Part shown: piece by piece, positions 5,347 through 53,226 of the stretch
Numbering within the stretch: position 1 is the stretch's first letter
How the letters are laid out: every line of letters starts with the position of its first letter
From: Candidatus Jorgensenbacteria bacterium
Lineage (GTDB): Bacteria > Patescibacteriota > Minisyncoccia > UBA6257 > GWB1-50-10
Assembly (NCBI GenBank): GCA_043807585.1
Contig: JAZDFV010000015.1
Span: 16,071 to 80,070 of the forward strand
Direction of reading: 5' to 3'
Length of the DNA: 64,000 bases
The notes under the pieces: model-generated
The model's input: only the letters and a program-made list of their open reading frames with translations
Told to the model about the DNA's origin: nothing
Databases searched by the model: none
Translations under genes and position numbers: made by a program

Positions 5347-5427
5347 CCATAGCGCAAAACGGGAAGCCCCGCACCTGTGGACAAGCCTCGAGAAGCGAAC
5401 GAAATGGTTGCAATGTCAACCCGAAAT

Positions 5428-5521
5428 GCTACGAAATACGAAAAGCTTACGAATATACGAAATGCCGCTGAATATCAGTGCTGTTTTTCGTATATTCGTA
5501 CTAAAATTCGTATTTCGTAGC
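5428..5521. promoter_or_regulatory. about 94-nt two-segment hairpin (14+14 bp arms of acgaaatacgaa/acgaatatacgaaa) in the pdaD-nrdJ spacer, equal to the nrdJ leader
   Basis: gctacgaaatacgaa..acgaatatacgaaa [loop with nested ctgaatatcag palindrome] tttcgtatattcgt..ttcgtatttcgtagc read directly. Confidence 0.5.
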
Positions 5522-5526
5522 CGCAA

Positions 5527-6105
5527 TTAGGGAGCTGGGGGTGCCTGCCCGTTCCCGAAGATGAGCACCGCGGATGCTACCGTGGTGGTCCAGAGCCCAT
5601 CCTTGTGACCCTCCGCGGACTGGGTGATGTTGGTAGTGCGGATGATCTTACCGGAGGCCTTGTACACCTGTTCGCGCTCGTCCCAGGCGGCGTTGGGGTC
5701 GAACTCAAGGCCGAGGGTGGTCGCGAGCATCGTGGCGGCAAGGTCTTCTGCATACTCCCCTGCCTTCCCTTCCGTTTCGCCGAATGTGTGGTGCTCGGAA
5801 AGATATCCATACTGCGATGGGTCTGCGGGTTGGGCAAGGCCGATTGCGGAAACCACGAGGCGGTTCGGTTCGTTCGTCTCATTCCGCGCCATGACGCAGA
5901 AGACCACCTGGCCGGGCACCAGAAACTTCTTCCCCTCTTCCTTGGAGATGCGCTTGCAGTTCGGGGGAAAGATGGAACTCACCTGCACGAGGTTGTACTC
6001 GGCGATGCCCGCGTCGCGGAGCGCCATCTCAAAGGATTGGAGCTGTTCCTTGTGGCGCCCCACACCCTTCGTGAAAAACATCTTTGCCGGCACTAAATTG
6101 GTCAT
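5527..6105 (-). CDS. pdaD: pyruvoyl-dependent arginine decarboxylase
   Basis: [44 protein letters not shown] matches the PdaD N-terminus including the SS self-processing site. Confidence 0.85.
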
Positions 6106-6129
6106 GCGAGATATAGTAGCAGATGTGTG

Positions 6130-7326
6130 TTATCCGTAAAGTCGCGCGAGCTCGTTGAACTTTACGAGACGCTCGCGGATAGGGGCGCCGATTTTCACGC
6201 CGTCGGCGCCGCAGGCGCGCGCGAGGTGGATGATGAACGTGTCATCGGTCTCGCCGGAGCGATGGGAAATAACAACCTGAATCCCGCGCGTGCGCGCCGC
6301 GCGGATGGCTTCGCATGTCTCGCTCACGGTTCCAATCTGGTTCGGTTTGATGATGACGCCGCTTATGGCTCCCTGTGCGGCGCACGATTCGATGAGCGCC
6401 GGATTCGTCACGGTGAGGTCGTCCCCCACGATGAGCTTTCCGGGGAGTTCCCGCCGCAGCGCCGCGAATGTCTCTCCCTCGTTCTCGTCGAACGGGTCTT
6501 CAATGGACATGAGGAGTGGCTCGCGCGCCGCATAGCTTTGGTAGATCGTTTTGAGTTCATCACTGGTGAGGTTTTTGCCCTCGAACTTATAGAAGCCACC
6601 CTTGAAGAAAACGGAGGCCGCGGAGTCAATGCCAAGCGCAAACTCTTTCTCGAGGTGGAGGGAGCGTATGCGCGCCCCGAGCGTGGCGAGGGGCTCGAAG
6701 TTGTCTTTGAAGTTCAGGGAGTAGCCACCCTCATCACCCAGGCGGATGGCGGTGAGATTCTGTGACTGCTGCAGCCATCCACCGAGGTCATGGTAGAAGG
6801 CCTTGAGCTGTTCCACGCTCTCTTTTACCGATACACTTGGTTTCACTGCGACAAGGTACTCCTGAATGTCGAGGTTGTTTTCCGCATGGGCGCCGCCGTT
6901 TATGAGATTTGAGAAAATGCGCGGCGGCGCGTCGCCTGCGGTGCTCGCGAAAAACTCGCCTCGGAGCATGAGCCAGAGCTCGCGTCCCTCGGCGCCCGCG
7001 AGCGCCCGCGCGAAGGCGATGGAGACGCCGAGGAGGACGTTACCGCCGAACGCTGCCTTATCCGGCGTGCCGTCCAGGTCAATGAGGAACCGGTCCAGGT
7101 CGCCCACCGAGGTGAAATCCCTGTCCCGTAGCGCCTGCTCGATCTTTTCCGCAGCCGCTATCGCCTCCGCGGTCGCCAGCACCCGCGCCTCGCGCGAGCC
7201 GCGGCTCCCACCGGAGGGAATGGATGCGGAGAATTCCTTTCCGTTGTCGGTGACGATGATCACCTCGATCGTAGGCGCCCCACGCGAGTCAGGAATTTCT
7301 TTTATGGCGATGCTTTGGATTCTCAT
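6130..7326 (-). CDS. eno: enolase (phosphopyruvate hydratase)
   Basis: IKEIPDSRGAPTIEV, SIPSGGSRGSREA, C-terminal IKPNQIGTVSET...VISHRSGETDD signature blocks. Confidence 0.9.
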   Translation of the reverse strand: MRIQSIAIKEIPDSRGAPTIEVIIVTDNGKEFSASIPSGGSRGSREARVLATAEAIAAAEKIEQALRDRDFTSVGDLDRFLIDLDGTPDKAAFGGNVLLGVSIAFARALAGAEGRELWLMLRGEFFASTAGDAPPRIFSNLINGGAHAENNLDIQEYLVAVKPSVSVKESVEQLKAFYHDLGGWLQQSQNLTAIRLGDEGGYSLNFKDNFEPLATLGARIRSLHLEKEFALGIDSAASVFFKGGFYKFEGKNLTSDELKTIYQSYAAREPLLMSIEDPFDENEGETFAALRRELPGKLIVGDDLTVTNPALIESCAAQGAISGVIIKPNQIGTVSETCEAIRAARTRGIQVVISHRSGETDDTFIIHLARACGADGVKIGAPIRERLVKFNELARLYG

Positions 7327-7619: not shown

Positions 7620-9395
7620 TCACACCACCTCTGCATTGTAGCAGGATTCGCAATAGATTATCTCTTTGCGGTCCGGCGCGTAGGAGGTCTCGAACTCATT
7701 AGGACATTTCTCTCCCCCGTGGGTGTGGTGGACGGTGTTCTTATAGATACCGTTCTCACTCCCCTTCCCCGCACACTGACACTTTCTTTTCCATAGCTTC
7801 AAGGGGTTCCGCTGCTTCAAACGCTCATAGTGACGACAGTTGGGGCAGAGGCGGGGTATGGGCAGATTCATTCTCCGATAGAAGGCGAGTTCCTCCCCTA
7901 TGACCTTGAAGGCGGTGGTGCACTGGTGGGTGCATTTCCCCTCGTGAGCGCAGCCTATCGTTTCATTCAATACCTCGTCGGTGACATCTTTGATGTAGTC
8001 GGGAAGATCCTCGGGTCTCTTGGTGATAGTGTATTGTTTAAGGTCGGGGTTTTTCCACCTGTAGCCCTTCGACTTCGCTTCCGCTTCGCTCAGGGGGAAG
8101 TACTCCTGGGCGATTGTCTCGTTGTACGCGAAGGGAGACAATTCTGGAGGGAAGAACTCGCCGTACCGGTAGACCCTCCCCTGCTTATCTACGTAGGGCA
8201 TGGTGTTCATGTGCTCAATGATGCGAGGTACCAGCTCCTCATACTCTTCCTTGGTGTATTGCTTGTTCAAGATGCAGTACTGCTTGTTTTTCATCCCAAC
8301 ACACCCAAAAAGGTTATGAGAACTTGAGCACCAGTCAGTGTACTGGGACCCGCGGAGAACATCAGCGCTGGCAAAAAATTTTACATTCGAAGTTCCTTTG
8401 CCCCCGACAATCCCATCATACACGAGCTCACTTCCCTCACCACAACTGAAAACCCTGTGTACGTCTTTTGCCTTAAGGACGCGGACAACCCAAGAGGCGT
8501 TTTCCACATCATAGGCATCGAAAGAATTCCTCACGTTCTTGCAATTCAAAATGTAGTTCCCGGTGCAATTGACCGCTTTCGAAATGTCGGCGTATTTATG
8601 AATACTGCACGCCTCAAGATCCTTGAAGTCATTCAGAAGTTTGGCTCTCCCCCGAGCGCTCCCAAGATTGATCCCCGAAATCGATTTCTCATACGCGCCC
8701 TTCGAGAGCTGTTCGTTGCAAAAAACATACTGTTTGTTCCGAAGGTTTGCCGACATAAAACAATTCTGGCAATTCACACAGTCATATAGGTAGTACGAAT
8801 CCGTACAGTCACGGCTGTTCACGATGAACTGGCTCTTATAACAATGGTCGGAATTGAACCCCTCGTATAACAACTCGGAGTTCTTGGACATCAAGGAATC
8901 GAGGACATCCTTAGACCAATCAACGATATTCGAATAGTAAATGCTCTCTCCTGTAGAAATCCCATACGCAAGGTAGGCGTTCTTCGTGTTCCGCGTGTAG
9001 TTCGCGAATTCGCAGTTAACACTCGTTCCATACTGCAGTATCGCGACGCGGGGGGTTGTCTTCAAAACGGACAGGAACTGAGTAAAGAATGGTTTTGCGA
9101 AATCATACGGAACCCCATATTTTGTTGGGTCCCATTTGTCAGATATGAAACAGCTATGGCAATACACAGGGAACTGGGCCCCCACCGGGTACATGGAAAT
9201 TGTCTTCGTTTTACAAAGCTCACACTGCCCCCAATACAACGCTTTCTCATTCCGCCAGAGCATTTTCGCTGCAAAACCGCACTCCGGGCACCACGTGGGC
9301 AGCGGGACTTTTATCTTCTCGTAGAACGCGAAGTCATCCGGCTCTATCGTGAAATTCTGCTGGCAACTCTGGCAATTTCTTGATTCGTGGTGCAT
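7620..9395 (-). CDS. cysteine-rich hypothetical protein with N- and C-terminal CxxC zinc-ribbon-like modules and internal Cys/Asn-rich repeats; atypically low GC
   Basis: 591-aa ORF; FYEKIKVPLPTWCPECG at N-term and FYRRMNLPIPRLCPNCRH at C-term; local GC about 47% versus about 60% flanks. Confidence 0.5.
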   Translation of the reverse strand: MHHESRNCQSCQQNFTIEPDDFAFYEKIKVPLPTWCPECGFAAKMLWRNEKALYWGQCELCKTKTISMYPVGAQFPVYCHSCFISDKWDPTKYGVPYDFAKPFFTQFLSVLKTTPRVAILQYGTSVNCEFANYTRNTKNAYLAYGISTGESIYYSNIVDWSKDVLDSLMSKNSELLYEGFNSDHCYKSQFIVNSRDCTDSYYLYDCVNCQNCFMSANLRNKQYVFCNEQLSKGAYEKSISGINLGSARGRAKLLNDFKDLEACSIHKYADISKAVNCTGNYILNCKNVRNSFDAYDVENASWVVRVLKAKDVHRVFSCGEGSELVYDGIVGGKGTSNVKFFASADVLRGSQYTDWCSSSHNLFGCVGMKNKQYCILNKQYTKEEYEELVPRIIEHMNTMPYVDKQGRVYRYGEFFPPELSPFAYNETIAQEYFPLSEAEAKSKGYRWKNPDLKQYTITKRPEDLPDYIKDVTDEVLNETIGCAHEGKCTHQCTTAFKVIGEELAFYRRMNLPIPRLCPNCRHYERLKQRNPLKLWKRKCQCAGKGSENGIYKNTVHHTHGGEKCPNEFETSYAPDRKEIIYCESCYNAEVV

Positions 9396-12355: not shown

Positions 12356-12383
12356 TATGCCTTATTTTACCATTCGCGCGAAA

Positions 12384-12416
12384 ACATTCCGACATTCTGC
12401 AGAATGTGAGAATGTT
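12384..12416. promoter_or_regulatory. imperfect copy of the 40-bp palindrome (cattctgcagaatgtgagaatg core) between the divergent ArsR genes, abutting the TATAAT of the plus-strand ArsR; candidate operator
   Basis: Palindrome ends 6 nt before tataat (12423-12428); ATG at 12438. Confidence 0.5.
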
Positions 12417-12742: not shown

Positions 12743-12776
12743 GACATTCTCACATTCTGCAGAATGTGAGAATGTC
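12743..12776. repeat. copy of the 40-bp perfect palindrome family (gacattctcacattctgcagaatgtgagaatgtc) between the convergent ArsR and helicase genes
   Basis: Read directly; identical core at 15125, 16239. Confidence 0.7.
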
Positions 12777-12851
12777 GTTTAACGTAGTTGGAGTGCTCAG
12801 GACGAAGGAGGAAATTGGCCTATGTGGTGGAGAGAGGTAACAACACGTGTC

Positions 12852-15124: not shown

Positions 15125-15164
15125 AACGACATTCTCACATTCTGCAGAATGTGAGAATGTCGTT
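15125..15164. repeat. 40-bp perfect palindrome aacgacattctcacattctgcagaatgtgagaatgtcgtt
   Basis: Exact reverse-complement symmetry about ctgcag. Confidence 0.75.
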
Positions 15165-15181: not shown

Positions 15182-15403
15182 TCAGTCGGACATTTTCCAC
15201 TGGACGCGGCCGACGGTGCCGTCCGTTAGGCGCACCTTGATGCCGCGCGGGTGGATGCCCTTGGACGTCAAAATCTCCTTCACTATCCCCTGCGTGTAGT
15301 TCGTCGTACCGTAGTTTTCTTTCTCTATGATCCAGACGGCGTCCCCGGGTTTCACTTCGCTCCGCTTCGGCGGATTGGGATTGTCGGGTCCGTGCTTTCT
15401 CAT
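15182..15403 (-). CDS. YwbE-family (DUF2196) small protein
   Basis: GIVKEILTSKGIHPRGIKVRLTDGTVGRVQ matches the YwbE signature. Confidence 0.7.
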   Translation of the reverse strand: MRKHGPDNPNPPKRSEVKPGDAVWIIEKENYGTTNYTQGIVKEILTSKGIHPRGIKVRLTDGTVGRVQWKMSD

Positions 15404-15441
15404 GTTCGTTTTGTCATTCTACCTCAAAACGCCGCGCGCGG

Positions 15442-15837: not shown

Positions 15838-16134
15838 TCATTCGCTCGCGGGTGACTTGAGAGAATCGCGTTTTGCTTCTTCCACGTTTTCCTTTAGGGA
15901 GCCAACCTTACGCATGATATCGATCAAGGTTTTTGTTTCTTCCTGGTCTGCATCCGGTGACATTGCCCGGCGCGCTGCCTCTAAATTTTCCGCCAGGCGG
16001 GACATGCTCTCGGCCATCTTTTTGAAGAGCAACTCCTTCGGGATATTTTTCTCTCCGCCGTATTTCACAATCCACCACCAATATAGGAGCCGAACCTTCA
16101 CCATTGGCCAGAAGCTGTAGCGTATAAAATCCAT
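15838..16134 (-). CDS. hypothetical small protein
   Basis: 98-aa ORF. Confidence 0.35.
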   Translation of the reverse strand: MDFIRYSFWPMVKVRLLYWWWIVKYGGEKNIPKELLFKKMAESMSRLAENLEAARRAMSPDADQEETKTLIDIMRKVGSLKENVEEAKRDSLKSPASE

Positions 16135-16164
16135 ATCTCTATTCTATCTCAAAACGCCATGCGG

Positions 16165-16204
16165 GGTACTATAGGCTAATTCGCACGAATTAGCCTATAG
16201 TACC
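16165..16204. repeat. 40-bp palindrome ggtactataggctaattcgcacgaattagcctatagtacc (GGTACTA...TAGTACC outer arms, long spacer)
   Basis: Read directly; followed by a ccattcgcgcgaattagagaatgg module also present at 12367 and 12025. Confidence 0.55.
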
Positions 16205-16238
16205 ATTCGCGCGAATTAGAGAATGGGACTCAAGCAAG

Positions 16239-16274
16239 AACATTCTCACATTCTGCAGAATGTGAGAATGTCGT
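16239..16274. repeat. copy of the 40-bp palindrome family
   Basis: aacattctcacattctgcagaatgtgagaatgtcgtt. Confidence 0.7.
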
Positions 16275-16362
16275 TCTCTATGATCCAGACGGCATCCCTG
16301 GGTTTCACTTCGCTCCGCTTCGGCGGATTAGGATTGTCGGGTCCTTGCTTCCCCATATTCGT
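16264..16362 (-). pseudogene. internally deleted remnant of a duplicated ywbE-like gene (5-prime about 90 nt only)
   Basis: 16275-16362 is near-identical to 15308-15403 (the ywbE 5-prime end); a deletion junction joins it directly to the palindrome. Confidence 0.6.
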
Positions 16363-16399
16363 TTTGTCATTTTAACATTTTCGCCTTACTTCTCGTTGG

Positions 16400-17155
16400 T
16401 CAGTTAGTTTTTTTGTACCAAACATCAATTTTTTGACGTGTTTCTCTTCGATTTGCATTAACAAAAGTCTGTAATTGTGGAAAATATCCTAAAAATTCGT
16501 CGTGTAATTTCTTGCGGCTAGCTGATGTCTCTCTACCACTTTTAATTAAATAACTAGTCCGAACTAACCCAATAATAAGATCGACGAGTTGCAGTTCACA
16601 TGATGCATATAAAGGCGCAAAGAGTACTGAAGAATCTCGAATCTGGATTGTGGGCTTCCCCAAAATAGTATTCTTTTTTCTCAGCATATTATTCAGTACC
16701 TTCGAGAATTCTTCCTGTTGCTCAAAATTAAGCGATTGTCTATCAAAGATAAGTCGAGCAGCAGAAAGACGATTGTGTATTAAGCTTCCATGAAGTATCC
16801 ATGGATAAGACAATAGCAGTGCCGCTAACTTCGCGCGGCTGATGTGATTTTCCCATCTTTCCCACGTGCGAGCGTTCACCACAATTGCTCTAAACAGGGC
16901 ATTCGAATCAACAAAAGCAGAAAGAAACCCACTCATAACTTTAGATTGTTTTTCGGTAATATTTGTAGTGTTGGAAAAATGAAGAGTATTGATACAACTT
17001 TCTTTCATTCTCACTTGCCCAAGTCGCTGGAACAAATCGCAATCTACAGGTAGAAAAATACCACCAACCATAAAATGGCTGGTGCCTAGATACCCGAACT
17101 CAGTTTCGTCCAAAAAAATCCTGCAAAGATGAAATACTGATTCTGAAATTTTCAT
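16400..17155 (-). CDS. DUF3800-like protein (defence-island-associated family), AT-rich
   Basis: N-terminal IFLDETEFGY resembles the DUF3800 IFIDESG start; 251 aa; low GC. Confidence 0.4.
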   Translation of the reverse strand: MKISESVFHLCRIFLDETEFGYLGTSHFMVGGIFLPVDCDLFQRLGQVRMKESCINTLHFSNTTNITEKQSKVMSGFLSAFVDSNALFRAIVVNARTWERWENHISRAKLAALLLSYPWILHGSLIHNRLSAARLIFDRQSLNFEQQEEFSKVLNNMLRKKNTILGKPTIQIRDSSVLFAPLYASCELQLVDLIIGLVRTSYLIKSGRETSASRKKLHDEFLGYFPQLQTFVNANRRETRQKIDVWYKKTN

Positions 17156-17223
17156 TACGAAACAAGCCGGGTTGCCCCGGCTTGGAAGTCAAACGGCTTT
17201 CGAGTCAGGGCGCAATTGGTTCT

Positions 17224-18798
17224 TTATATTCCAAGTTCTTTGTCTCTATTTTTTTCTTCTACCGGCTTCGCTTCCTTGTAGTACCGCAGGGCGCCGAGGG
17301 GCACCCTCGGCTTCTTGTTGTTCAGCAAATCGTCAACGGTGAGGATTTGAATCTTGGGGAATTCAAACTCGTTTCCGAACTTGACCTTGTACGAACCGGC
17401 GCTCGCCGCTTCCTCCAGCATCGGCTTGGTTGGTTTCTCAAGCGTAATGAGCACGCCACCCTCCGCTCGTTCCCGCTCCACGTCACCCTTGAGCGTGGCG
17501 ATATCGTTCCGATGAACCCCGCCGCCTTTCACCTGCACCAGCAAGCGGCCGTATTCCTCGTTCCCATTCTTCAAGTCCTTTACGAACGTAATAACCCCGT
17601 CTATGCCTTTATCGGCGCCGCGCATATGCTCCTTCGTTTTACTTTGAGCCGGCACCGCGTCCACCATATCGAGCACCCAGTATTCGAATTCAAACGGGTC
17701 TTTTTTGAATAGTGCCTGCGCGCTGGCAACATCACGCGGACGACCGTCAATATATATTGCAGGCATCTTTCCTTCAAACTGCTTAGCGAGGCGATGGCGA
17801 ATGAGGTTGATCGCAAGCATCGTGATGTCAATACCGACCCAGTTCCGCTTCAGGCGTTCCGCCACCGACACCGTTGTCCCGCATCCGCAAAATGGGTCAA
17901 GCACCCAATCCATTTCGTTTGAAGATGCCTTAACAATACGTTCAAGGAGTGTTTCTGGTTTTTGAGTGGGATAGCCAAGTCGTTCATTAGGAGAAATATG
18001 CCCTCCTGATGGAATATCAACCCAAAAATCTTCTGGAATCTTACCTCGCTTTAAATATTCCTGACGCACTGTTTCATCCTGTAATTTCCCTTCACTCCCC
18101 CATATTTTTGCCCCAGCACCCTTATCTGTATGTAACTCCTTATAGGGAATCCTCGTTGCTTCAAGATTGCTGTAATAATTATCTGTCTTTGAATATCGCA
18201 AAATTGTGTCATGTTTTTTAGGAAAATCATTCTTTGCACCAGAAGGACCAGTATAGCACCACACAATCTCGTTCCTAAAATTCTGCTTTCCAAAAATCGC
18301 GTCCATCACAATTTTTAAGTAATGGCTTGCGGTCGGGTCACAGTGGAGATAAATACTCCCTGTCGGTTTCAGCACGCGATGTAACTCTAAGAGTCGCACC
18401 GTCATCATGGTGAGATAGGCAAGCACGTCGTTGTGTCCCACGAGTTTCTCCAACGCCTGCATCAGATTGATGATTTTCTCGTTGATGGGCGCTTTTGTAG
18501 TTCGTACTCCCGCGAGTTCCTCGAAGGTTTCCTGCGCATCGCGCGTCCAGTGCCATGAATCTTCAAACGCCTGCACTTGCGAAGGGCTGTCCTGCAACCC
18601 TTCTTTAAAGAGAACATTGTAGTTCCGGTTGGAGTTGAACGGCGGGTCGAGATAAATCAAATCAAAACTCTCGTCGGGAATTTTCTCCCGCAGGATTTCC
18701 AAATTATCGCCGAAGAACAGGGTGCGATTTCTAAGTGGTTCCATTTTTTTCCATCCTACTCCTCTTTTTCTTCCCCGCCAAGCTACGAGAGGGTACAC
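17224..18798 (-). CDS. beta-class N6-adenine/N4-cytosine DNA methyltransferase fused to a C-terminal Mrr-like (PD-(D/E)xK) nuclease domain
   Basis: Motif IV DLIYLDPPFNS precedes motif I LDPFCGCGTT (beta order); C-terminus GADKGIDGVITF...LLVQVKGGG resembles Mrr_cat. Confidence 0.75.
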   Translation of the reverse strand: MYPLVAWRGRKRGVGWKKMEPLRNRTLFFGDNLEILREKIPDESFDLIYLDPPFNSNRNYNVLFKEGLQDSPSQVQAFEDSWHWTRDAQETFEELAGVRTTKAPINEKIINLMQALEKLVGHNDVLAYLTMMTVRLLELHRVLKPTGSIYLHCDPTASHYLKIVMDAIFGKQNFRNEIVWCYTGPSGAKNDFPKKHDTILRYSKTDNYYSNLEATRIPYKELHTDKGAGAKIWGSEGKLQDETVRQEYLKRGKIPEDFWVDIPSGGHISPNERLGYPTQKPETLLERIVKASSNEMDWVLDPFCGCGTTVSVAERLKRNWVGIDITMLAINLIRHRLAKQFEGKMPAIYIDGRPRDVASAQALFKKDPFEFEYWVLDMVDAVPAQSKTKEHMRGADKGIDGVITFVKDLKNGNEEYGRLLVQVKGGGVHRNDIATLKGDVERERAEGGVLITLEKPTKPMLEEAASAGSYKVKFGNEFEFPKIQILTVDDLLNNKKPRVPLGALRYYKEAKPVEEKNRDKELGI

Positions 18799-18844
18799 CT
18801 ACCCCAAAACCGAACCCCGGTAATAGCGGTTAGTAGAGACAAAC

Positions 18845-18897
18845 AAAAACGCCCGCTTGGGCGGGTTTGGATTATCGGGTCCGAATTTACGCATATT
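18845..18897 (-). pseudogene. second short remnant of the ywbE-like 5-prime end
   Basis: gcccgcttgggcgggtttggattatcgggtccgaatttacgcatattcgttttgtcatttta parallels 15345-15420. Confidence 0.45.
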
Positions 18898-19002
18898 CGT
18901 TTTGTCATTTTACACCAAAATGACGACTATTAACCTGTTATTAGAAGCATTGACATAGAGAGTACGTGGCGTTAATATACCGTCGGTTACTTTTGAGAGT
19001 GC

Positions 19003-19221
19003 ATGTGGCCTAGGCCTAAGACGACACTTCGCTTGCGAGGTTCAAACGTCATGGCACATACGAAAGGACTGGGAAAGGAGTACATTTACTGCCAATCGAT
19101 CGACTCACCTCCAGAATGGCAGGACGAAGTAGACTACCTCATTTATGAAGTTCAAAGTCTATTGATAGTAGAGAGGTTCAGCCAAAGATCGGTCGAGACA
19201 GATTTTGTACCTTCTCCCTAA
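19003..19221 (+). CDS. small hypothetical ORF ending at a rho-independent terminator
   Basis: 72-aa ORF; terminator immediately follows. Confidence 0.3.
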   Translation: MWPRPKTTLRLRGSNVMAHTKGLGKEYIYCQSIDSPPEWQDEVDYLIYEVQSLLIVERFSQRSVETDFVPSP

Positions 19222-19250
19222 GCCCAACAAGGATATCCTTGTTGGGCTTT
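19221..19250 (+). terminator. rho-independent terminator agcccaacaaggatatccttgttgggc then ttt
   Basis: 11-bp perfect stem, T-run on the plus strand. Confidence 0.55.
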
Positions 19251-19362
19251 AAATTTTTATGTGGATAACTACGCACAGGTATCCCTTACCAACAAAAAGT
19301 GGTTTTCTTCCCTGCTCGGTGCTTTACTGTCTTCTGCAAGGTAGAGAGGAAGCGGGATTTGG

Positions 19363-19719
19363 TCATTTATTAAAAGCCCATTCAGAAATATTGAGCAGAA
19401 CAATAGCATCCTCCTGTTGATTGGTCCAAATAGGTACTGTTTTATTCCAGTAGAAGAAGTGTGAAGTATTGCCACTCCCATTTACTTGTGTTTTATAAGA
19501 CCCTTTCTTTGTATAAAGAACAATTAAATCACCCTTTTTAATTTCGTGGTCAGTAAACCAAAAAGTAGCACTGGTAGCACTAGAAACTTGCGCCTCCCCT
19601 GTTTTTTTAGATTTGAAAACGGCGTATTCTCCAACGTTATCATCATCCAAAACCTCAAAAATAACCCTTTCTTTCTCTAAATTCCCCGCGTCTTCAATTC
19701 CTTTAATTTGGATTTTCAT
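19363..19719 (-). CDS. hypothetical soluble protein, AT-rich, first gene of a two-gene module
   Basis: 118 aa; stop/start overlap with the upstream gene. Confidence 0.45.
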   Translation of the reverse strand: MKIQIKGIEDAGNLEKERVIFEVLDDDNVGEYAVFKSKKTGEAQVSSATSATFWFTDHEIKKGDLIVLYTKKGSYKTQVNGSGNTSHFFYWNKTVPIWTNQQEDAIVLLNISEWAFNK

Positions 19720-20267
19720 TATGAATTATTTTTCTTAAAAGATTTCAAAAAATCAGGGTTCCACATAGCCAAAACAAAACTCGCTAAACATAAAAGTGCT
19801 ATACCCCAACGATATTGCAATAAATCAGGAGTAAAGAAAAGACCTCCCAATAAACCACCAACGGTGAATAAAAGATTCCTTACTCCAATAGATTCTCCTA
19901 ATCCTAATAATCTCTCCTTCAAAACAGCGGATTCTTCACTCTTTTGATAAAATTTATCCTTAAATGGTTTTAATCCAGCAATTTCACTTTGATAACGCTT
20001 AGTATCACCAAGAAGTGTTCTAGCTACCACTTTTGCTACTTTATTGTTTTCTAAATCTTCTTCGGTAATTTCATCTTTAATGCCAGCGTAGGGCGTTTTT
20101 GCTGACTTAACGCCATCTATTTCTGGCGAACCCTTCGGCTCCTCATCTAGTTTTAGAACTATCTTAGCCATTTTGTCTAAGTATAACACACCTGGTTCAA
20201 TGGTATCTACCAAAGAGTAATCCCGATATTTATAATGAGACAAGGATAGCTTTTCTCTAGAAACCAC
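19719..20267 (-). CDS. hypothetical protein with C-terminal transmembrane helices, AT-rich
   Basis: 182 aa; hydrophobic C-terminus NLLFTVGGLLGGLFF...IALLCLASFVLAMW. Confidence 0.45.
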   Translation of the reverse strand: MVSREKLSLSHYKYRDYSLVDTIEPGVLYLDKMAKIVLKLDEEPKGSPEIDGVKSAKTPYAGIKDEITEEDLENNKVAKVVARTLLGDTKRYQSEIAGLKPFKDKFYQKSEESAVLKERLLGLGESIGVRNLLFTVGGLLGGLFFTPDLLQYRWGIALLCLASFVLAMWNPDFLKSFKKNNS

Positions 20268-20329
20268 AACAACCTCGCCTCGCGGCGGGGCTCATTATAC
20301 AAACGATTTTGACTATTCCGGCAGTTTTT

Positions 20330-22921
20330 CTACTTCTTCGCCAACTGAAGAATGGTTTTGATGACCGTATCCGGATTGAGAGAGATGCTCTCTATCCCCT
20401 TCCTGATGAGGAACGCGGCGAAGTCGGGGTAGTCCGAGGGTGCCTGGCCGCAGATGCCGCTGTATTTTTTTCGCTTGCGGCACTTCGCGATGACCTCCGC
20501 GATCATCTTCTTCACCGCCGGGTTGTTCTCGTTCGCGATGTGGGTGACGATTCCGGAATCGCGGTCGAGGCCCAGGACGAGCTGGGCTAGGTCGTTGGAC
20601 CCGATGGACATACCGTCAAAAATGTCCAGGAACTCATCGGCGAGGAGAATGTTGGAGGGGATTTCGCACATCACATAAACCCGCAACGGGTTTATGTGAC
20701 CCTGAGCCTGTCGAAGGGTTGTTTTCCCTCGCTTCAAACCGAAGCGCGCCATTGCGGCGAGTACCTTTCTTCCCTCCTCCGGCGTGCGGCAGAATGGCAC
20801 CATCGGCACCACGTTCGTGAGGCCGAACTTCTCGCGGACGCGCCGCAGGGCTTTCACCTCCAGGCCGAACGCTTTCTCGAACTTCGGGTCGTAGTAGCGC
20901 GAGGCGCCGCGCCACCCGAGCATGGGGTTCTCCTCCACCGGTTCGTAGAGTTCACCACCCACGAGCTTCCGGTACTCGTTCGTCTTGAAATCGGAGAAGC
21001 GGATGATAACCTCGCGCGGGTAGAACGCCGCGCCTATCTTTGCAATGCCCTCGGCGAGTTCGTCCACGTAGAATTTTGTCTTATCCTTATAGCCCGGCGT
21101 CAGTTCGTCAATTTTCCGAATCAGTTTCTGCAGTTTTGATTTTTCAGTTTTCGTTTTGACTTTTGAGATTTGAGATTTGAGTTTATCGTATTCGATGAGC
21201 GCGTTCGGGTGAACCTTGATGTGCGAGGCGATGATGAACTCCAACCGCCCAAGGCCCACGCCCGCGACGGGCAGGTAGTGGTTTTTGAACGCCTCGTCGG
21301 GCGCGCCGATATTGACCATAATCTTTACCTTCGGCTTCGGGAGCTTGTCCAGGTGGTGCTCTTTTATTTCAAACGCCAGTTTCCCCTGGTACACATGGCC
21401 GGTTTCGCCGCCCGAGCAGTCCACAGTAACCGCCTGCCCCGTTTTCAGCTTCCGCGTGGCGTTTCCCGCGCCCACGATGCAGGGAATCCCGAGCTCGCGC
21501 GAGACGATGGCGGCGTGCGACGTGCGCCCACCCTTGTCTGTCACGATCGCCGCGGCGATCTTCATGATAGGCTCCCAATCGGGGTCGGTGATCTCGGTCA
21601 CGAGCACCTCGCCGGGCTTGAACGAACCAATACCCCTTATGCTCTTTATCACCCGCGCCTTTCCCGCGCCCACTCTCTCCCCCACCGCGATGCCCTCCGT
21701 AAGCACCTTGCCCTGAGGGCTTCGACTGAGCTCAGCCGAATGTCCTTGTCGAAGGGTTTTGCCCCCTGCGCGCCGAAGTGTTTTATCTTTGAGCCGGTAC
21801 TCGCGGTAAACCTTCTTACTTTCCATTGCGTGGACCGTTTCGGGGCGCGCCTGCACGATGAAGAGTTCGCCTGTTTTGCCGTCCTTCGCCCACTCGATAT
21901 CCATCCCGTTAGAGGCAGCCCGCCCCAGGGCCCCTCCGGGGCGCGCAGCGCGGGCGCGGCCTCTAACGGGACCCATCGGCCGCATACGATTCCTCACTTC
22001 TGCAAAGTGTCTCTCTATCTCGACACTCCACCGCGCGAGCGTGAGCACCTCATCCTCCGTGAGGCAGAAGCGGTTCTGGTCACGCGGCGAGACCGCCACC
22101 TTCCGCGTTCCTACGCCCGCGTAGACGAGCTTCACCGTTTTCCTCCCAAGGTTCTGGGCAATGACCGCCTTGAACCCCTGCGCCAGGGTCGGTTTGAAGA
22201 CCACGAACTCATCCGGCAGCACCCTTCCCTGCACCACCATCTCACCCAGACCCCATGAGGCATTTACCACCACCACCTTGTCGAACCCCGTTTCGGTATC
22301 AATGGTGAAGATGACGCCGGAGGCGGAGAGATCGGAGCGCACCATCTTCTGGACACCCACCGAGAGCGCCACATCCGAGTGCGTGAACCCTTGGTCCGCA
22401 CGGTACGAGATGGCGCGGTCCTTGAAAAGCGAGGCGATGCATTTCTTCGTGGCGAGGAGCACTTCATCGGCGCCGGAAACGTTCAGGAACGTTTCGTGCT
22501 GGCCGGCAAATGAAACACCGGGGAGATCCTCCGCGGTCGCCGAAGAGCGCACCGCCGTGTCCAAGTTCTTCCCGTACTTCTTCTCCAGTTTCCGATACGC
22601 CGCCCGTATCTCGCGTTTCAGGTCTGCGGGGAGTTCCGCCTTCACTATGAGTTCGCGTATCGCCTTACCGCGCCGCTGGAGGTCCTTGAGGTTGCGGGTT
22701 TTGAGGCCAGCGAGGAGCGTTTTTATTTCGCGGTCCAGCCCGGTTTCTTTCAGAAAGTAGCGGTAGGCGCCCGCGGTGATGGCGAAGCCGTCAGGCACAC
22801 TGATACCCCGCTTCGTGAGGTTCGAGTACATTTCCCCGATCCCGGCGGTCTTGCCGCCTACCTTAGGGACGTCCTTCAAACGTATGTCTTTGAACCAGAT
22901 GATGAACGGCTTATAGGTCAT
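20330..22921 (-). CDS. ppsA: phosphoenolpyruvate synthase (pyruvate, water dikinase) carrying several in-frame repeat-element insertions
   Basis: MTYKPFIIWF...VGGKTAGIGEM N-terminus, central phospho-His domain, C-terminal MCEIPSN...GSNDLAQ PEP-utilising block; 863 aa against about 790 typical. Confidence 0.85.
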   Translation of the reverse strand: MTYKPFIIWFKDIRLKDVPKVGGKTAGIGEMYSNLTKRGISVPDGFAITAGAYRYFLKETGLDREIKTLLAGLKTRNLKDLQRRGKAIRELIVKAELPADLKREIRAAYRKLEKKYGKNLDTAVRSSATAEDLPGVSFAGQHETFLNVSGADEVLLATKKCIASLFKDRAISYRADQGFTHSDVALSVGVQKMVRSDLSASGVIFTIDTETGFDKVVVVNASWGLGEMVVQGRVLPDEFVVFKPTLAQGFKAVIAQNLGRKTVKLVYAGVGTRKVAVSPRDQNRFCLTEDEVLTLARWSVEIERHFAEVRNRMRPMGPVRGRARAARPGGALGRAASNGMDIEWAKDGKTGELFIVQARPETVHAMESKKVYREYRLKDKTLRRAGGKTLRQGHSAELSRSPQGKVLTEGIAVGERVGAGKARVIKSIRGIGSFKPGEVLVTEITDPDWEPIMKIAAAIVTDKGGRTSHAAIVSRELGIPCIVGAGNATRKLKTGQAVTVDCSGGETGHVYQGKLAFEIKEHHLDKLPKPKVKIMVNIGAPDEAFKNHYLPVAGVGLGRLEFIIASHIKVHPNALIEYDKLKSQISKVKTKTEKSKLQKLIRKIDELTPGYKDKTKFYVDELAEGIAKIGAAFYPREVIIRFSDFKTNEYRKLVGGELYEPVEENPMLGWRGASRYYDPKFEKAFGLEVKALRRVREKFGLTNVVPMVPFCRTPEEGRKVLAAMARFGLKRGKTTLRQAQGHINPLRVYVMCEIPSNILLADEFLDIFDGMSIGSNDLAQLVLGLDRDSGIVTHIANENNPAVKKMIAEVIAKCRKRKKYSGICGQAPSDYPDFAAFLIRKGIESISLNPDTVIKTILQLAKK
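20672..20735. mobile_element. hairpin (cacataaacccgcaacgggtttatgtg) plus cctgagcctgtcgaaggg element inserted in-frame in ppsA (encodes KTTLRQAQGHINP)
   Basis: Same cctgagcctgtcgaagg module with an adjacent hairpin at 47986-48030 (in ychF). Confidence 0.55.
21131..21183. repeat. gagatttg-type tandem repeat inside ppsA (encodes SQISKVKTKTEKSKLQKL); related copy intergenic at 50710-50750
   Basis: ttttgacttttgagatttgagatttgag. Confidence 0.5.
21707..21765. mobile_element. short CTGAGC-family element (ggcttcgactgagctcagccgaatgtccttgtcgaaggg) in-frame in ppsA
   Basis: Same termini as the longer copies at 55617, 60158 and 50010 (reverse orientation). Confidence 0.6.
21901..21976. mobile_element. 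cccgttagag TIR element (short form) inserted in-frame in ppsA (encodes MRPMGPVRGRARAARPGGALGRAASNG)
   Basis: catcccgttagaggc ... gcctctaacgggac inverted termini as in the copies at 44842, 45946, 48936. Confidence 0.6.
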
Positions 22922-23252: not shown

Positions 23253-24581
23253 TTAATCTTTCAGCGCAACAATCAAATCCGAAACGTTGGAGCCGGTGTC
23301 GCCCGTGATGAGGGCGTCGCCCGTCGCTTTGAAAAACTCGTAGGAGTCGTTCTCGGCGAGGAACTGTGCGGCGTCAAGTTTCAACTTCTCCGAGTGCTCC
23401 TTCGTCATTATATCAGAGACGGCGCCGGCGAAGTCGGTGTTGTCCCGTCCGTCGGAAGCGAGGGCGAGAACGAGCTCCCCTTCTTTGAGCTCCCTCAAGG
23501 CACCGAGGGCGAGCTCAAGGTTCCGGCCGCCTCTCCCCTGCGGGTTCTGCACCGTGACAGTGGTCTCTCCGCCGTAGAGGTGGACGGTGCCGGGTGCCGC
23601 CTCATGGAGCACATCCGCGATTTCTCTGCCCACATCCCGCGCCTCGCCGCGAAGGTTCGCGGTCATGATGCGGGGCGTGAAACCGGATTTTTCCGCCTCC
23701 GCCGCCATCGCCCCGAGCGCGGCTTGGTTGGAAACGACAAGGAGGTTCGTCACTTTTTCAAAATACTTATCCTCTTTTGGCGTCTCAATGAGTTCCAGTC
23801 GCGGGAGGTTACACTTCTCGCGGATGGCGTACTTCTCGAGCACCGCTTCGGCGTCCGCCACCGTCGTTTTGTCCCTCACAGTGGGGCCCGACGCGATGAA
23901 AGCAAGTTCGCCGCCCGGGACGTCGGAGAAAATGAGCGAAATTACCTGTGCGGGGCAGGCATAGCGCGCGAGCCAGCCGCCGCGGGCAAGCGAGGTGTGC
24001 TTGCGGAGTGTGTTTATCTCGTAGATGTCGGCGCCGCCCGCAAAGAGGCAGCGGAGGATTTTGGCTTCATCTTCGCAGGTGTGGTCCTGCGGCTGACCCG
24101 CCTCCGCTGAAGCTATGGCGGGTAAACATAATAAAGTAGAGCCGCCCCCCGAGACGACAAAGAGCACCGTATCTTTCTCCGAGAGGCCGGTGAGCGTTTG
24201 AATAATCTCCTTCGTGGCGTCCACGTTGGACTGTGTGGGGAAGGGGTGGGTACCAAAGCGAATTTCTAATTTCAAATTCCTAATTTCTAATGACGGCTTG
24301 TTTGACGTTAGAATTATTCCACCAGACAATCTTTCGCCGAGAATTTTTTCCAGTACCCTACCCGATTCCAGCGCGCACTTCCCAACCCCAATGACGAGGA
24401 GTTTGCCGTCCGGTGCAAGCTTGAATTTCTCCCCCTTTACGGAGAGTGTGTCACCCGCGAACTGTACTGCGTTCTTCACGACCGATTCGGTGTCTATCGC
24501 CTGAAGTCCGGCCTCCGCGATCTGGAGCGCCGCTTCCCGCGGTCTGCTCTTCGCAAGTTGCCCGAAGTTTTTGATTCTCAT
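23253..24581 (-). CDS. glycerate kinase (MOFRL/DUF4147 family, glycerate 2-kinase type)
   Basis: 442 aa; conserved blocks LVIGVGKCA, FSDVPGGELAFIASGPT, LYGGETTVTV typical of the GckA/TtuD family. Confidence 0.7.
   Translation of the reverse strand: MRIKNFGQLAKSRPREAALQIAEAGLQAIDTESVVKNAVQFAGDTLSVKGEKFKLAPDGKLLVIGVGKCALESGRVLEKILGERLSGGIILTSNKPSLEIRNLKLEIRFGTHPFPTQSNVDATKEIIQTLTGLSEKDTVLFVVSGGGSTLLCLPAIASAEAGQPQDHTCEDEAKILRCLFAGGADIYEINTLRKHTSLARGGWLARYACPAQVISLIFSDVPGGELAFIASGPTVRDKTTVADAEAVLEKYAIREKCNLPRLELIETPKEDKYFEKVTNLLVVSNQAALGAMAAEAEKSGFTPRIMTANLRGEARDVGREIADVLHEAAPGTVHLYGGETTVTVQNPQGRGGRNLELALGALRELKEGELVLALASDGRDNTDFAGAVSDIMTKEHSEKLKLDAAQFLAENDSYEFFKATGDALITGDTGSNVSDLIVALKD
24261..24293. 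repeat. taatttctaat tandem units inside the glycerate kinase CDS (encode EIRNLKLEIRF)
   Basis: aatttctaatttcaaattcctaatttctaatga; same unit dominates the murG-ftsW spacer. Confidence 0.5.
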
Positions 24582-29224: not shown

Positions 29225-29281
29225 AGTCGTCAGTTGTTCGTCGTTCGTTGTAAGTTATCAGTTGTCAGTTGTAAGTTATCG

Positions 29282-33083: not shown

Positions 33084-33212
33084 CTTATTCTTTGCTCTTT
33101 GCTATTTACTATTTGCTATCTTGACGCTGATTAATGCTGATTTTGGCGGATTTATGCTGATATGTTCCAAGTCATCGGTTATTTTGTCATCCGTCATCGT
33201 CATTGGTCATTC

Positions 33213-35958: not shown

Positions 35959-36379
35959 ATCCTGATCATTATACGCTCGTTTCAGGGGTTTTTGAACCGA
36001 AAGGACCGCGAACGAATTCGCGGTCTCTGGAATCGCCTACTACGCAACAAAACTCGCTGGATTCGGCCGTGCTACGCCGCTATTATGCCATGGCGTAATA
36101 GCGGCGTATGATATGAAGAAAAGAAAGAAAGGCATATCGTCAGGACAATAATTCTTTTAGCTTTCCCAAAATCAACCAATCCGCTGTTTGATTATGTTTC
36201 TTTCTCTCAAGATCAGTTAATTCACTATGCGGTTTTCTAAATTCAACCGGGCCCTCTAAGCTGCTCATCGGCCAACCCGGAAGTATTATTTTCGAGGAGG
36301 GCGAAAAGAATAAAATTTCATGGTCGAGGGCAACTGTCTTTATTGAACCATCCGGGAATGCGAGAGAATAAGCGATGTG

Positions 36380-36754
36380 CTACCTTCCCGTCCTCTTTTC
36401 TTTCGGCGCCCCGGCAATGATTCCCTCCCAATAGTTAAGCAATGTATTGTCGTCTGCTTCGTCTTTGCTTTCAATTCTCCTCACAAAAACTCCCGGCTGT
36501 CTTTCCATGGGCAAAAAATCGACATAGAGAGCTTCATCTTCGGAAAAGACGGGCAAATTGAGCTTCTGGGAATAGAATCTTGCCTTGATCTCTGCGTTTT
36601 CTTCGGCGGTCGTACCATGTTCCTGCGGCTTCTCTGTGATGCCAAAATCGTCAAGGACAAAAATATCTTTAATCATCCCGACGAACAACCCTCCAAACCT
36701 TTCCTTTTTGGCCAGATTACGAGTGGCGATCACTATCTTTTCTACTTTTTCCAT
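36380..36754 (-). CDS. RdgB/Ham1-family non-canonical purine NTP pyrophosphatase, N-terminal portion only (possibly truncated)
   Basis: KIVIATRNLAKKERF ... GTTAEENAEIKARF ... DEALYVDFLPMERQPGVFVRR match Ham1 blocks, but the ORF is 124 aa against about 200. Confidence 0.5.
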   Translation of the reverse strand: MEKVEKIVIATRNLAKKERFGGLFVGMIKDIFVLDDFGITEKPQEHGTTAEENAEIKARFYSQKLNLPVFSEDEALYVDFLPMERQPGVFVRRIESKDEADDNTLLNYWEGIIAGAPKEKRTGR

Positions 36755-36899
36755 TTTTTAATTTTACCCCTTCGATAAACTCAGGACAAGCAAAAAACCG
36801 TCTGTTTGGCGATTTTTATTGGCTTGCCCTGAGCTTGTTGAAGGGCTCCGCTGGATGGATGATGCCTGCCCTGAGCAAAGTCGAAGGGTTAGGGCCTGT

Positions 36900-37580
36900 T
36901 TAGGATATTTCTGCATAGATCGGGTAATGATCCATATAAGCACCTCGTTCTCTCACTACTTTCGACCGCACACTACAGTGTTCAGTAATAAAGATTTTAT
37001 CCATAGATGTGCCGAAATAAGTCGTTGCTAATCCTGCTGAAGTGTCCGACGTGTAGTTGGTGAGAAGCTCGTACGATCGTCTATCTGTGTTGGATAGGAA
37101 ACGTTTTCCAATAATCCAGAAGTTAGTATCTCCGGCAATAATAACCTTGCCGTACTCCTTTATTATTTCACTAAGTATTTTGACTTGCCCAAAGCGTTTT
37201 TCCGGCGAGAAGGAGTTGAGATGTATAGGGACAATATAGTTATCATTCACTGTTAGAATTGTGAACTCTCTAGTCCCATCAACGATTTCTATGTCGGCAT
37301 TTGCGATAACTGCGATGGAATGCTTGTGGTACCAGGCATCCACTAAGAGATGGTGGGCGTAGCGAAGTTTGGTTTGAATTCTAGTAACGTCGCTCGGATG
37401 ATAAAACTCCTGAAGTATCACAACGTCGGCCGATATTTCTTGAAGAACCCCCACTACCTTCTCTATGTTTCCTTCAGAGTAGTATTCGTTTTCTATCGGG
37501 ACATTTCCAATGGTAAATTTCAGGTATCTTGCGTATTTCATCCACGGAAACAACCCGGTATTCCAAACGCAAAGCTTCAT
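36900..37580 (-). CDS. endonuclease/exonuclease/phosphatase (EEP) family protein
   Basis: VVILQE, IIAGDTNF and DHYPIYAEI motifs. Confidence 0.7.
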   Translation of the reverse strand: MKLCVWNTGLFPWMKYARYLKFTIGNVPIENEYYSEGNIEKVVGVLQEISADVVILQEFYHPSDVTRIQTKLRYAHHLLVDAWYHKHSIAVIANADIEIVDGTREFTILTVNDNYIVPIHLNSFSPEKRFGQVKILSEIIKEYGKVIIAGDTNFWIIGKRFLSNTDRRSYELLTNYTSDTSAGLATTYFGTSMDKIFITEHCSVRSKVVRERGAYMDHYPIYAEIS

Positions 37581-37913
37581 GGTAATTAGGAGTATGCCAG
37601 TTCCGGACAGTTTTCGTTCCGCTGGATAGACGATGCCTGCCCCGTTACAAAACTTGTTTTTGCAATGGGGTGAGAACCTGTTTGGTCAGCACTAAAAAAT
37701 ATCTCGCCGGAAGGTACCTAGGTTTTATCGTCGATCACTCTCCCAATGGCAACGCCAACGGCCACGGCAACAAAAAACCAAAGAACTCTATCCCAAAGCC
37801 GAGAAAAGTGCTCTGGCTGGCCAAAAATACTGGCGAGGAAAAATGCCGCGATGACTATGTAAACCAACTCTTTCCACCATTTCATAACCATTCTTGTGAT
37901 GGGTGGGTGGTTT

Positions 37914-53224: not shown

Positions 53225-53226
53225 AT

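Follow-up and report, generated by a model that had tools for sequence, protein, structure and literature searches.

The phosphoenolpyruvate synthase gene ppsA of a groundwater Candidatus Jorgensenbacteria bacterium (Patescibacteria, also known as the candidate phyla radiation, CPR) has probably been colonised several times by small non-autonomous repeats, and the surviving insertions would be those that keep the reading frame, contain no stop codon and lie in tolerant loops or linkers. We assign this reading a probability of about 0.8. The gene was studied within a window of 64,000 nucleotides (nt), the whole stretch of contig JAZDFV010000015.1 that was analysed, which belongs to a metagenome-assembled genome (MAG). 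An earlier note on this DNA had proposed that four inserts, each a copy of a dispersed repeat, lie in frame in an otherwise intact gene. The gene and its four inserts (ins1–ins4), with their main parts, are as follows.

20330–22921, minus strand: ppsA (phosphoenolpyruvate synthase), one intact, uninterrupted open reading frame (ORF) of 863 aa, from the ORF list and Pfam.
21904–21971: ins4, a 68-nt MITE (a transposable element of the miniature inverted-repeat type) with 13-bp terminal inverted repeats (TIRs), T-CCCGTTAGAGGC ... GCCTCTAACGGG-A, encoding ...PVRGRARAARPGGALGRAASNG...
21900–21903: left copy of the ins4 target-site duplication (TSD), TCCA on the plus strand.
21972–21975: right copy of the ins4 TSD, CCCA on the plus strand, identical to the left copy at 3/4 positions.
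21713–21781, minus strand: ins3, a 69-nt composite insertion, aa 381–403, TLRRAGGKTLRQGHSAELSRSPQ.
21718–21743: nested element in ins3, 26 nt long and derived from a 61-nt hairpin element by loss of the central 30 nt (the hairpin tip).
21121–21184, minus strand: ins2, a degenerate tandem array of heptanucleotides, translated as the Lys-rich stretch KLKSQISKVKTKTEKSKLQK.
20687–20722, minus strand: ins1, an insertion of about 36 nt replacing about 6 nt, aa 734–745, TTLRQAQGHINP.
20701–20717: the 17-mer CCTGAGCCTGTCGAAGG of repeat family 1, within ins1.
20671–20699: a perfect 13-bp hairpin, with one arm (20671–20683) formed by the native R-V-Y-V-M codons and the other (20687–20699) by an inserted mirror image.

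The ppsA product matches the Pfam domains PPDK_N (1e-112), PEP-utilizers (5e-29) and PEP-utilizers_C (2e-57), all three intact, and the intact frame described in the earlier note holds. Its alignment with Neisseria PpsA (PDB 2OLS; 838 bits) is interrupted at exactly four places, and these are the four segments that the note had picked out; predicted insert-encoded stretches are PVRGRARAARPGG, TLRQGHSAELSR and TTLRQAQGHINP. The protein is identical (100%) to one from a Candidatus Jorgensenbacteria MAG at NCBI. After this come P0002 (818 aa), P0003 (856 aa) and P0004 (812 aa), with 81–83% protein identity and 82–84% nucleotide identity, and a typical CPR PpsA has about 804 aa. The best other protein among 5.8 billion sequences is 83% identical, and no within-species allele lacking single inserts was found among them. 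The ratio of nonsynonymous to synonymous substitutions (dN/dS, Nei–Gojobori) against P0002–P0004 is 0.12, which places the gene under purifying selection. Because of this value and the phosphohistidine motif GGRTSHAAIVSRELGIP, invariant in the alignment, ppsA is not a decaying pseudogene; that reading was rejected, the catalytic TSHAAI motif and the three domains also being intact.

We scored each insert for presence or absence in 62 PpsA homologues, and built a codon alignment from the DNA of P0002–P0004. ins4 is absent in 60 of the 62 homologues and ins3 in 59, which have the 13-aa uninserted form at that place. Individual insertions are missing from related genes, as the earlier note had asked: P0002 and P0004 have no ins3, and none of P0002–P0004 has ins4. 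Orthologue alignment accordingly identifies these two segments as insertions, whereas ins1 is partly shared (diverged versions in at least 7 of the 62) and ins2 is also present in P0003. By sequence comparison, ins3 and ins4 are confirmed as derived in-frame repeat insertions. The claim that all four inserts are multiples of 3 nt did not hold for the boundaries first drawn: those ranges measured 64, 53, 59 and 76 nt, and the real indels against the closest alleles are 72 nt (ins4), 69 nt (ins3) and 18 nt (ins2).

The net ins4 insertion, measured as an indel against the closest alleles, covers 72 nt (21905–21976, aa 316–339). The codon alignment shows a clean 72-nt gap in P0002–P0004 between CCN (Pro) and ATG-GAY (Met-Asp), and the empty sites read CCN-ATGGAY, with one target copy. 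A cccgttagag TIR element ahead of the MDIEWAKDG block, as had been proposed, was recovered as the inverted pair CCCGTTAGAGGC / GCCTCTAACGGG around 42 nt, and the window has three further inverted pairs of this layout. The element folds into one long hairpin (z = −3.4). Being small and multicopy, bounded by TIRs and a TSD and devoid of an ORF of its own, ins4 is a MITE by structure.

Two further ppsA genes in the homologue set contain ins4-type elements, and all three hosts are Patescibacteria by best hits. In P0066 the element, with a body of 102 nt, occupies the same site (flanks ATGGAT/ATGGAC), and in P0012 it occupies a different one (flanks GTTGAC/GTTGAC). As the P0066 protein is only 64% identical to the window PpsA and every closer relative has no ins4, the common site represents independent hits on a preferred target. 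Transposition of ins4 was into TGGA within the Met-Asp codons (ATG-GAT) that open the MDIEW block, with a 4-bp TNNA-type duplication, and members of its family struck this site independently in a second lineage and ppsA at another position in a third.

A metagenome scan for the ins4 TIR pair with a 30–60-nt spacer returned at least 120 loci and 120 non-redundant elements. The figures that follow refer to the copies among the matches listed. The outermost TIR base is complementary in 118 of 120 copies, so the TIR is 13 bp long (YCCCGTTAGAGGC), not 12 nt. A 4-bp TSD is identical on both sides in 74/120 copies (1/256 expected by chance) and at least 3/4 identical in 92/120, with the consensus T-N-N-A, the 4-bp register having been set on these same 120 members. 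Metagenomic copies range from 54 to 81 nt, several elements at separate loci have identical interiors, and the interior of the ppsA copy is about 70% similar to a common 66-nt form.

The lengths of the family are quantised. They are divisible by 3 in 93 of 127 copies (73%; p ~ 5e-20), the common classes being 57, 60, 63, 66, 69, 72, 75 and 78 nt. Forty of the 127, every one of a length divisible by three, lie in read-through ORFs with at least 40 codons on each side; 20 use the frame PVRG...ASNG and 20 the frame PLEA...PLTG, and TAG/TAA within the TIRs shut the third. A looser criterion makes 53–57 of 121 copies coding. Among the longest host ORFs, ten correspond to recognisable genes, and the hosts include DnaG, an RNB-domain (RNase R-type) RNase, topoisomerase I, the R subunit of a type I restriction system and a histidine kinase, as well as a GH94 enzyme, an SBP_bac_5 protein, a TraG-like protein and an aldehyde dehydrogenase. 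The length bias and the use of two frames are direct evidence of selection for frame-preserving insertions of this family, which the earlier note had put forward as one of two options.

Length bias and stop avoidance of this kind are expected only for translated elements, and they bear on the idea that the inserts are removed after transcription or translation in the manner of an intron or intein, leaving a mature enzyme of normal length. The elements do fold into strong hairpins, and introns in rRNA and tRNA genes of Patescibacteria are described in one report (PMC13011429). However, 36–72 nt is far too small for group I or II introns or inteins, and a scan of the whole window at Rfam gathering thresholds found one tRNA only, with no RNA family in ppsA or the repeats. 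Removal is scarcely credible on this evidence.

The window also has three relatives of the ins4 MITE, each about 120 nt long and each lying on a start codon.

44844–44964: relative of the ins4 MITE with TIR CCCGTTAGAAAC and the perfect TSD TCCA, on the start codon of an MraY-like gene.
45948–46070: relative of the ins4 MITE with the perfect TSD TTCA, on the start codon of a D-Ala-D-Ala carboxypeptidase-like gene.
48938–49059: relative of the ins4 MITE with the perfect TSD TTCA, on the start codon of ychF.

Their TIRs are of the ins4 type (CCCGTTAGAGAY), and over their length they resemble one another at 81%. At each, the ATG is rebuilt from the terminal A of the TIR and the TG of the duplication. 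Just upstream of these start codons there is a hairpin with compensatory changes, and no Shine–Dalgarno sequence was seen there; one of the elements has a weak sigma-70-like match directed at the gene.

ins3 consists of two family-1-like units, one of them split by the nested hairpin element. On the plus strand the order is CCCTGAG, GGCTTCGACTGAGCTCAGCCGAATGT, CCTTGTCGAAGGG, TTTT and a second, degenerate unit, GCCCCCTGCGCGCCGAAGTG. At this site P0003 has a 6-aa insert, VLRQAQ, encoded by a lone family-1 unit (GTCCTTCGACAGGCCCAG) and classed as a remnant. ins3 matches window copies at 60155–60224, 55619–55679 and 50002–50061; in the blastn comparison its middle part corresponds to both ends of the copy in bipA, such that 21714–21731 aligns with 60155–60172 (18/18) and 21730–21753 with 60201–60224 (23/24). 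The three full-length copies of the 61-nt hairpin element are listed here.

50002–50061, minus strand: in frame near the N terminus of an Mpg-type (Pur_DNA_glyco) DNA glycosylase gene (49511–50161, minus strand).
55619–55679, plus strand: intergenic.
60157–60217, plus strand: in frame in bipA/typA, within an insertion of about 50 aa.

These copies, two of which are in genes, are mutually 97–98% identical, which indicates recent mobility of the 61-nt element. All four sites of the element share the context ...TGAG, element, CYTTGYCGAA..., placing it inside a family-1-like motif; we read this as either a nested insertion or a composite unit. The bipA copy reads ...CGAACGTCC and is the only one with CGTC, the others reading ...CGAATGTCC. 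Relative to E. coli BipA, the window bipA has an interdomain insertion of about 50 aa at approximately 60064–60222 (minus strand), which also contains a family-1-like unit, CCTTCGACTTTGCTCAGG (60073–60090), and a Ser/Thr/Asn-rich stretch. In ppsA, the family-1 unit would have come first, later gaining the 61-nt hairpin element, which would then have lost its hairpin tip.

ins1 has a different history. Its uninserted baseline, GL[DR]RxKDKxLK[IV]YVM, is found in 46 of the 62 homologues, and the other 16 have insertions of several unrelated kinds, which makes the site a hypervariable hotspot. P0003 (ppsA at 4376–6946 of its locus, L002) carries private in-frame repeats, namely SPRRSSHGGGG after KLVYAD and the 28-aa SVDIRINPRLNQRQSASNNPRQSAPNPRES at the ins1 hotspot; distinct ppsA alleles have thus been colonised by distinct repeat families. 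Judged from the aligned homologues, ins1 itself is an older family-1 insertion common to a subclade, in a loop where many lineages have acquired different repeats.

The 17-mer within ins1 is matched four times in the window, where shuffles lead one to expect 0.04 matches. It recurs exactly at 48007–48023 (17/17) in ychF and in more diverged form at 36768–36845. The repeat claimed for ins1 in the earlier note therefore stands as a 17-mer, the 18-mer that it had proposed having one mismatch at the ychF site. The hairpin claimed alongside it was confirmed as 13 perfect base pairs, with z = −4.45 and about 1.5e-4 expected per gene; its inserted arm encodes H-I-N-P. The same arrangement is found in a second gene of the window.

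47987–48023: ychF motif and hairpin, an 8-bp hairpin whose native arm is formed by the W-A-I-A codons, with the exact 17-mer one base away.

The 17-mer and this 8-bp hairpin make up a 13-aa in-frame insertion in ychF, RSVSGPSTGSGQS (47987–48041, minus strand), relative to Thermus YchF. The layout of motif plus native-codon hairpin was not seen among 125 listed copies of the 17-mer in other phyla. Among about 0.88 Mb of fetched, CPR-rich loci it was present in two of nine copies, both in the window. So far, the layout is specific to the present genome and the orthologous ins1 site.

The 17-mer itself is more widespread. A scan of one genome per species gave more than 120 loci (L006–L125 among the matches listed), which in the list fall in Chloroflexota, Actinomycetota, Cyanobacteria, Bacteroidota, Alphaproteobacteria (among them cultured Novosphingobium, Henriciella and Sphingobium), Acidobacteriota, Myxococcota and CPR. 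In 596 Gb, chance alone predicts about 69 hits, and we dropped the hit count as proof of a cross-phylum repeat for this reason. Many copies share flanks, for example CCGTTCGC...GCGAACGG, and several loci hold two or three copies; these features, not the count, point to the 17-mer as a genuine cross-phylum repeat core. The complementary stems around the constant core differ by genome (CCGTTCGC/GCGAACGG, CGCTCAT/ATGAGCG, CCTCAC/GTGAGG and others).

At the DNA level the ins1 hairpin, with lineage-specific letters, is also found in six further homologues. It has 14 bp in P0004 (ATGACATACACCCG / CGGGTGTATGTCAT), 13 bp in P0005 and P0103, and one or two mismatches or a larger loop in P0006, P0012 and P0029. 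In an alignment of these seven sequences, which were picked because they share the insertion, a 14-pair helix has 95.9% of its cells paired and six pairs changed on both sides, a result reached by 0 of 500 shuffles and with slid controls giving at most two. For example, the synonymous choice between TAT and TAC for Tyr in the native arm has its counterpart in ATA (Ile) or GTA (Val) on the inserted side. Synonymous sites are saturated in the lineages that retain the arms. In P0002 and P0003 the hairpin is lost or overwritten. Two readings of its upkeep are selection on the hairpin and concerted evolution of its arms through intrastrand template switching; a third possibility is that the insertion event copies adjacent target sequence in inverted orientation.

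This covariation speaks for the view that some inserts are kept because they are useful, with the ins1 hairpin acting as an RNA or DNA structure (in pausing, mRNA stability or as a protein binding site) or with the inserted loops modulating an enzyme of swivelling domains. The persistence of perfect 13–14-bp arms despite synonymous saturation, the second motif-plus-hairpin layout in ychF and the position of ins3 in the linker before the phosphohistidine domain all fit such a role. Yet the arms of a quasipalindrome can be homogenised by intrastrand template switching without selection, the seven sequences were chosen for sharing ins1, and the closest relatives P0002 and P0003 have dispensed with the hairpin. 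Most homologues (46 of 62) have no insertion at the site at all, and the insert peptides are poorly conserved. We consider a useful role unlikely, and prefer tolerated colonisation by repeats for ppsA as a whole.

ins2 is the segment for which the dispersed-repeat claim of the earlier note failed; ins1, ins3 and ins4 all have matching repeats, and ins2 is a tandem array common to P0003. Tandem Repeats Finder gives it a period of 7, 7.7–9 copies and 76% matches. It is six codons (18 nt) longer than the corresponding region of P0002 and P0004 and equal in length to that of P0003, which has a heptamer array at the orthologous place; across homologues the region varies between 20 and 40 aa. Nothing else in the window resembles it apart from a second heptamer array, at 50719–50750 (22/24). 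About ten heptamer arrays were found in the window, among them 24261–24291, 29253–29280, 33091–33119, 40835–40884, 40933–40963, 50328–50358 and 50719–50750, and most are just upstream of genes. The array at 24261–24291 is in frame in a DUF4147/MOFRL glycerate-kinase-like gene (SLEIRNLKLEIR). The sequence at 24261–24293 resembles that at 40836–40868 (29/33). ins2 is most likely an old, decayed heptamer microsatellite absorbed into a variable helix, not a product of transposition.

The behaviour of ins2 lends some weight to the view that all the extra PpsA segments are ordinary lineage-specific variable loops that resemble low-complexity repeats and are not mobile DNA. Its region is shared with P0003, variable in length and confidently predicted as helical, and the ins1 site is variable in 16 of the 62 homologues, with a related form of ins1 in at least seven lineages. 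Against this, ins4, bounded by TIRs and a TSD, is a member of a family with at least 120 copies elsewhere, ins3 matches 61-nt elements of other genes, and the exact ins1 17-mer recurs in ychF. Both ins3 and ins4 are missing from the nearest relatives, apart from the 6-aa remnant at the ins3 site of P0003, and leave clean codon-level empty sites. Element matches and empty sites already refute the variable-loop account for these two inserts, and for the set as a whole we regard it as distinctly unlikely compared with colonisation by repeats.

We modelled PpsA with AlphaFold2 from the 62-sequence alignment (mean predicted local distance difference test score (pLDDT) 82.3; predicted TM-score 0.79). 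The best Foldseek hit of the model is 2OLS, with a TM-score of 0.83 normalised to the target. Stretches with pLDDT below 50 are 1–3, 131–141, 313–337, 362–366, 383–402, 735–743 and 790–793. Three of these, 313–337, 383–402 and 735–743, coincide with ins4, ins3 and ins1, respectively, and have no predicted secondary structure. In the model, ins4 lies in the ATP-grasp domain between helix 289–309 and strand 341–346, ins3 lies in the linker to the phosphohistidine domain between helix 379–386 and strand 406–413, and ins1 lies in the PEP-binding barrel between helix 714–726 and strand 749–752. The ins2 region is predicted to form helices 578–587 and 591–607 with pLDDT above 90. Low pLDDT is what lineage-private sequence normally gives; at ins4, ins3 and ins1 it agrees with exposed loops without proving them.

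These results suggest a model in which the repeats are selfish elements mobilised in trans by a transposase. PpsA would tolerate the Gly/Ala/Arg/Pro/Ser-rich insert peptides as disordered surface loops, and purifying selection would purge out-of-frame and stop-containing insertions, a filter that would lead to element lengths quantised in 3 nt and to the use of two of the three frames.

Several observations weigh against this reading. We found no autonomous partner with ins4 TIRs in the approximately 0.88 Mb of fetched loci, searched for TIR pairs 300–4000 nt apart, and no transposase or REP-associated tyrosine transposase (RAYT) by Pfam among the 58 window ORFs of at least 90 aa; mobilisation in trans is for this reason only inferred. 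The compensatory upkeep of the ins1 hairpin in seven lineages is not predicted by a pure junk-DNA model unless the palindrome arms evolve in concert. ins2 does not fit a transposition model, and the window comes from a contig of a single MAG, the one contig known.

TIR pairing at 300–4000 nt in the fetched loci only combined separate small elements or, in one case, marked a large inverted duplication. In the latter locus (L169), two identical ins4-type elements at 5725–5790 and 8255–8320 are inverted, have flanks that are also reverse complements and bound about 2.5 kb. Either a large inverted duplication or an error of assembly would account for this pair.

The dependence on one contig also raises the question of whether the ppsA inserts are themselves assembly artefacts, formed by repeat-induced chimeric joins in the MAG. 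There is no second assembly of the contig, and short repeats are classic sites of misassembly. Nevertheless, all inserts are in frame with the conserved blocks on both sides in perfect register, ins4 has a proper target duplication, and the same element families occur in frame in independently assembled contigs of other samples, including two other ppsA genes. The elements are also far below read length and create no assembly ambiguity. Misassembly is very improbable, and multiple insertion into ppsA remains the preferred reading.

The earlier note had regarded four inserts in one enzyme as unusual, and this view did not hold up for the present genome: the ychF, bipA, Mpg-type glycosylase and glycerate-kinase-like genes of the window also have in-frame repeats. 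Several window genes are hit, ppsA the most heavily among them, and it is not a special case. In-frame insertions were found in ppsA, ychF, bipA and mpg in the window, and in DnaG, RNase R-type, TopA and other genes in the metagenome loci.

The closest functional parallel is with the Rickettsia palindromic elements (RPEs) invoked in the earlier note, which are 100–150 bp long, form several families and lie in frame in genes, where they encode solvent-exposed peptides (PMC10969869; PMC3767692). As with the palindromic elements of Rickettsia and Wolbachia, several short palindromic families are found here, both intergenic and in frame in unrelated housekeeping genes, with the frame kept. The comparison with RPE-like, frame-preserving insertion at tolerant loops is supported, as a functional likeness only. 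Across species, RPE insertions are for the most part orthologous and of old date (PMC3767692), unlike ins3 and ins4, which are absent from the nearest relatives (save for the short ins3-site remnant in P0003). The present host is a patescibacterium and not Rickettsia or Wolbachia, the in-gene elements are 17–68 nt long, and one family has canonical TIRs and a 4-bp TSD. Given the Candidatus Jorgensenbacteria host, it is very unlikely that the ppsA inserts are members of the RPE families, a comparison made with RPE descriptions.

Intragenic repetitive extragenic palindromic (REP) sequences are GTAG- or CGTC-tagged palindromes of 20–40 bp that occur singly or in groups inside known genes and add 20–30 aa (PMC3733652, Di Nocera et al. 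2013). Two separate REP insertions have been reported in R. conorii uvrB and Thioalkalivibrio uvrA, among several phyla (PMC3733652), so genes with multiple hits are not unprecedented. Unlike REPs, the 17-mer CCTGAGCCTGTCGAAGG has neither a GTAG nor a CGTC tag and, of the 61-nt copies, only that in bipA contains CGTC; neither family has a conserved GTAG/CGTC end. No RAYT, Y1 HUH or other tyrosine-transposase domain, the partner of REPs, was detected by Pfam in the window ORFs. The organisation of family 1 is the opposite of that of usual REP families, with a core identical across phyla and flanking stems that vary.

MITEs that make in-frame fusions include ERIC, BOX, Correia, Coxiella QMITE1 and Anabaena MITEs (PMC10969869), and ins4 resembles them in being readable through as part of its host ORF. 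Compared with other bacterial MITEs, the ins4 family is very small (54–81 nt) and quantised in 3 nt, with one-third or more of the listed copies in long ORFs. We found no report of such a length bias in other MITE families in the open-access literature. Among insertion sequences, IS1380 makes a 4–5-bp duplication and has 'CC' ends, and IS5 and IS701 make a 4-bp duplication. The ins4 family resembles IS1380, IS701 and IS5 in its 4-bp duplication and CC-starting termini, a likeness that serves as a lead only, no full-length element or transposase having been found.

Other repeats in the window lie outside ppsA. Identical perfect palindromes of 36–40 nt are located at 12743–12780, 15125–15164 and 16240–16275 (and 12383–12416), and a dispersed repeat of about 100 nt at 15321–15418, 16274–16371 and 18853–18920. 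They are in a low-GC stretch with a PIF1-like helicase and an N6/N4 methylase–Mrr fusion, which may be a mobile or defence island. Low-GC islands at 16000–20300, 36000–39900 and 53000–56000 have 36–45% GC, against about 57% elsewhere, and consist mostly of ORFs without Pfam matches; a tRNA-Gln (53227–53298) is at the edge of the third.

The phenomenon is known in kind. New are the group to which the host belongs, the MITE family with its codon-quantised lengths and the conserved hairpin with native codons recruited into it; we found no description of MITEs or in-frame repeats in CPR/Patescibacteria in open-access text. CPR genomes are about 1 Mb in size and are held up as examples of streamlining. 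Selfish repeats in core genes (ppsA, bipA and ychF here; primase, topoisomerase and RNase elsewhere) mean that streamlining does not exclude intragenic selfish DNA, and, with Rickettsia as the first, they offer a second independent case in which to ask how random peptide insertions are taken up by proteins. Protein lengths are inflated by such inserts, which also split hidden Markov model and structure alignments and can fake 'lineage-specific domains' in CPR phylogenomics. The recurrent hotspots, at the MDIEW junction and in the loop preceding the VYVMCE strand, are permissive PpsA sites for engineering, and the presence or absence of elements could mark strains finely in groundwater metagenomes.

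More tentatively, and at well short of even odds, groundwater Patescibacteria may host a MITE lineage adapted to reading frames, with family-1 insertions that make long-preserved native-codon hairpins. If so, coding sequence would be the main niche of the ins4-type MITE and not an accident, with TIRs that are stop-free in two frames, a codon-quantised length and many copies in essential genes. The preserved hairpins would then point to either an undescribed insertion chemistry (inverted target duplication) or a selected nucleic-acid structure in the genes of streamlined genomes.

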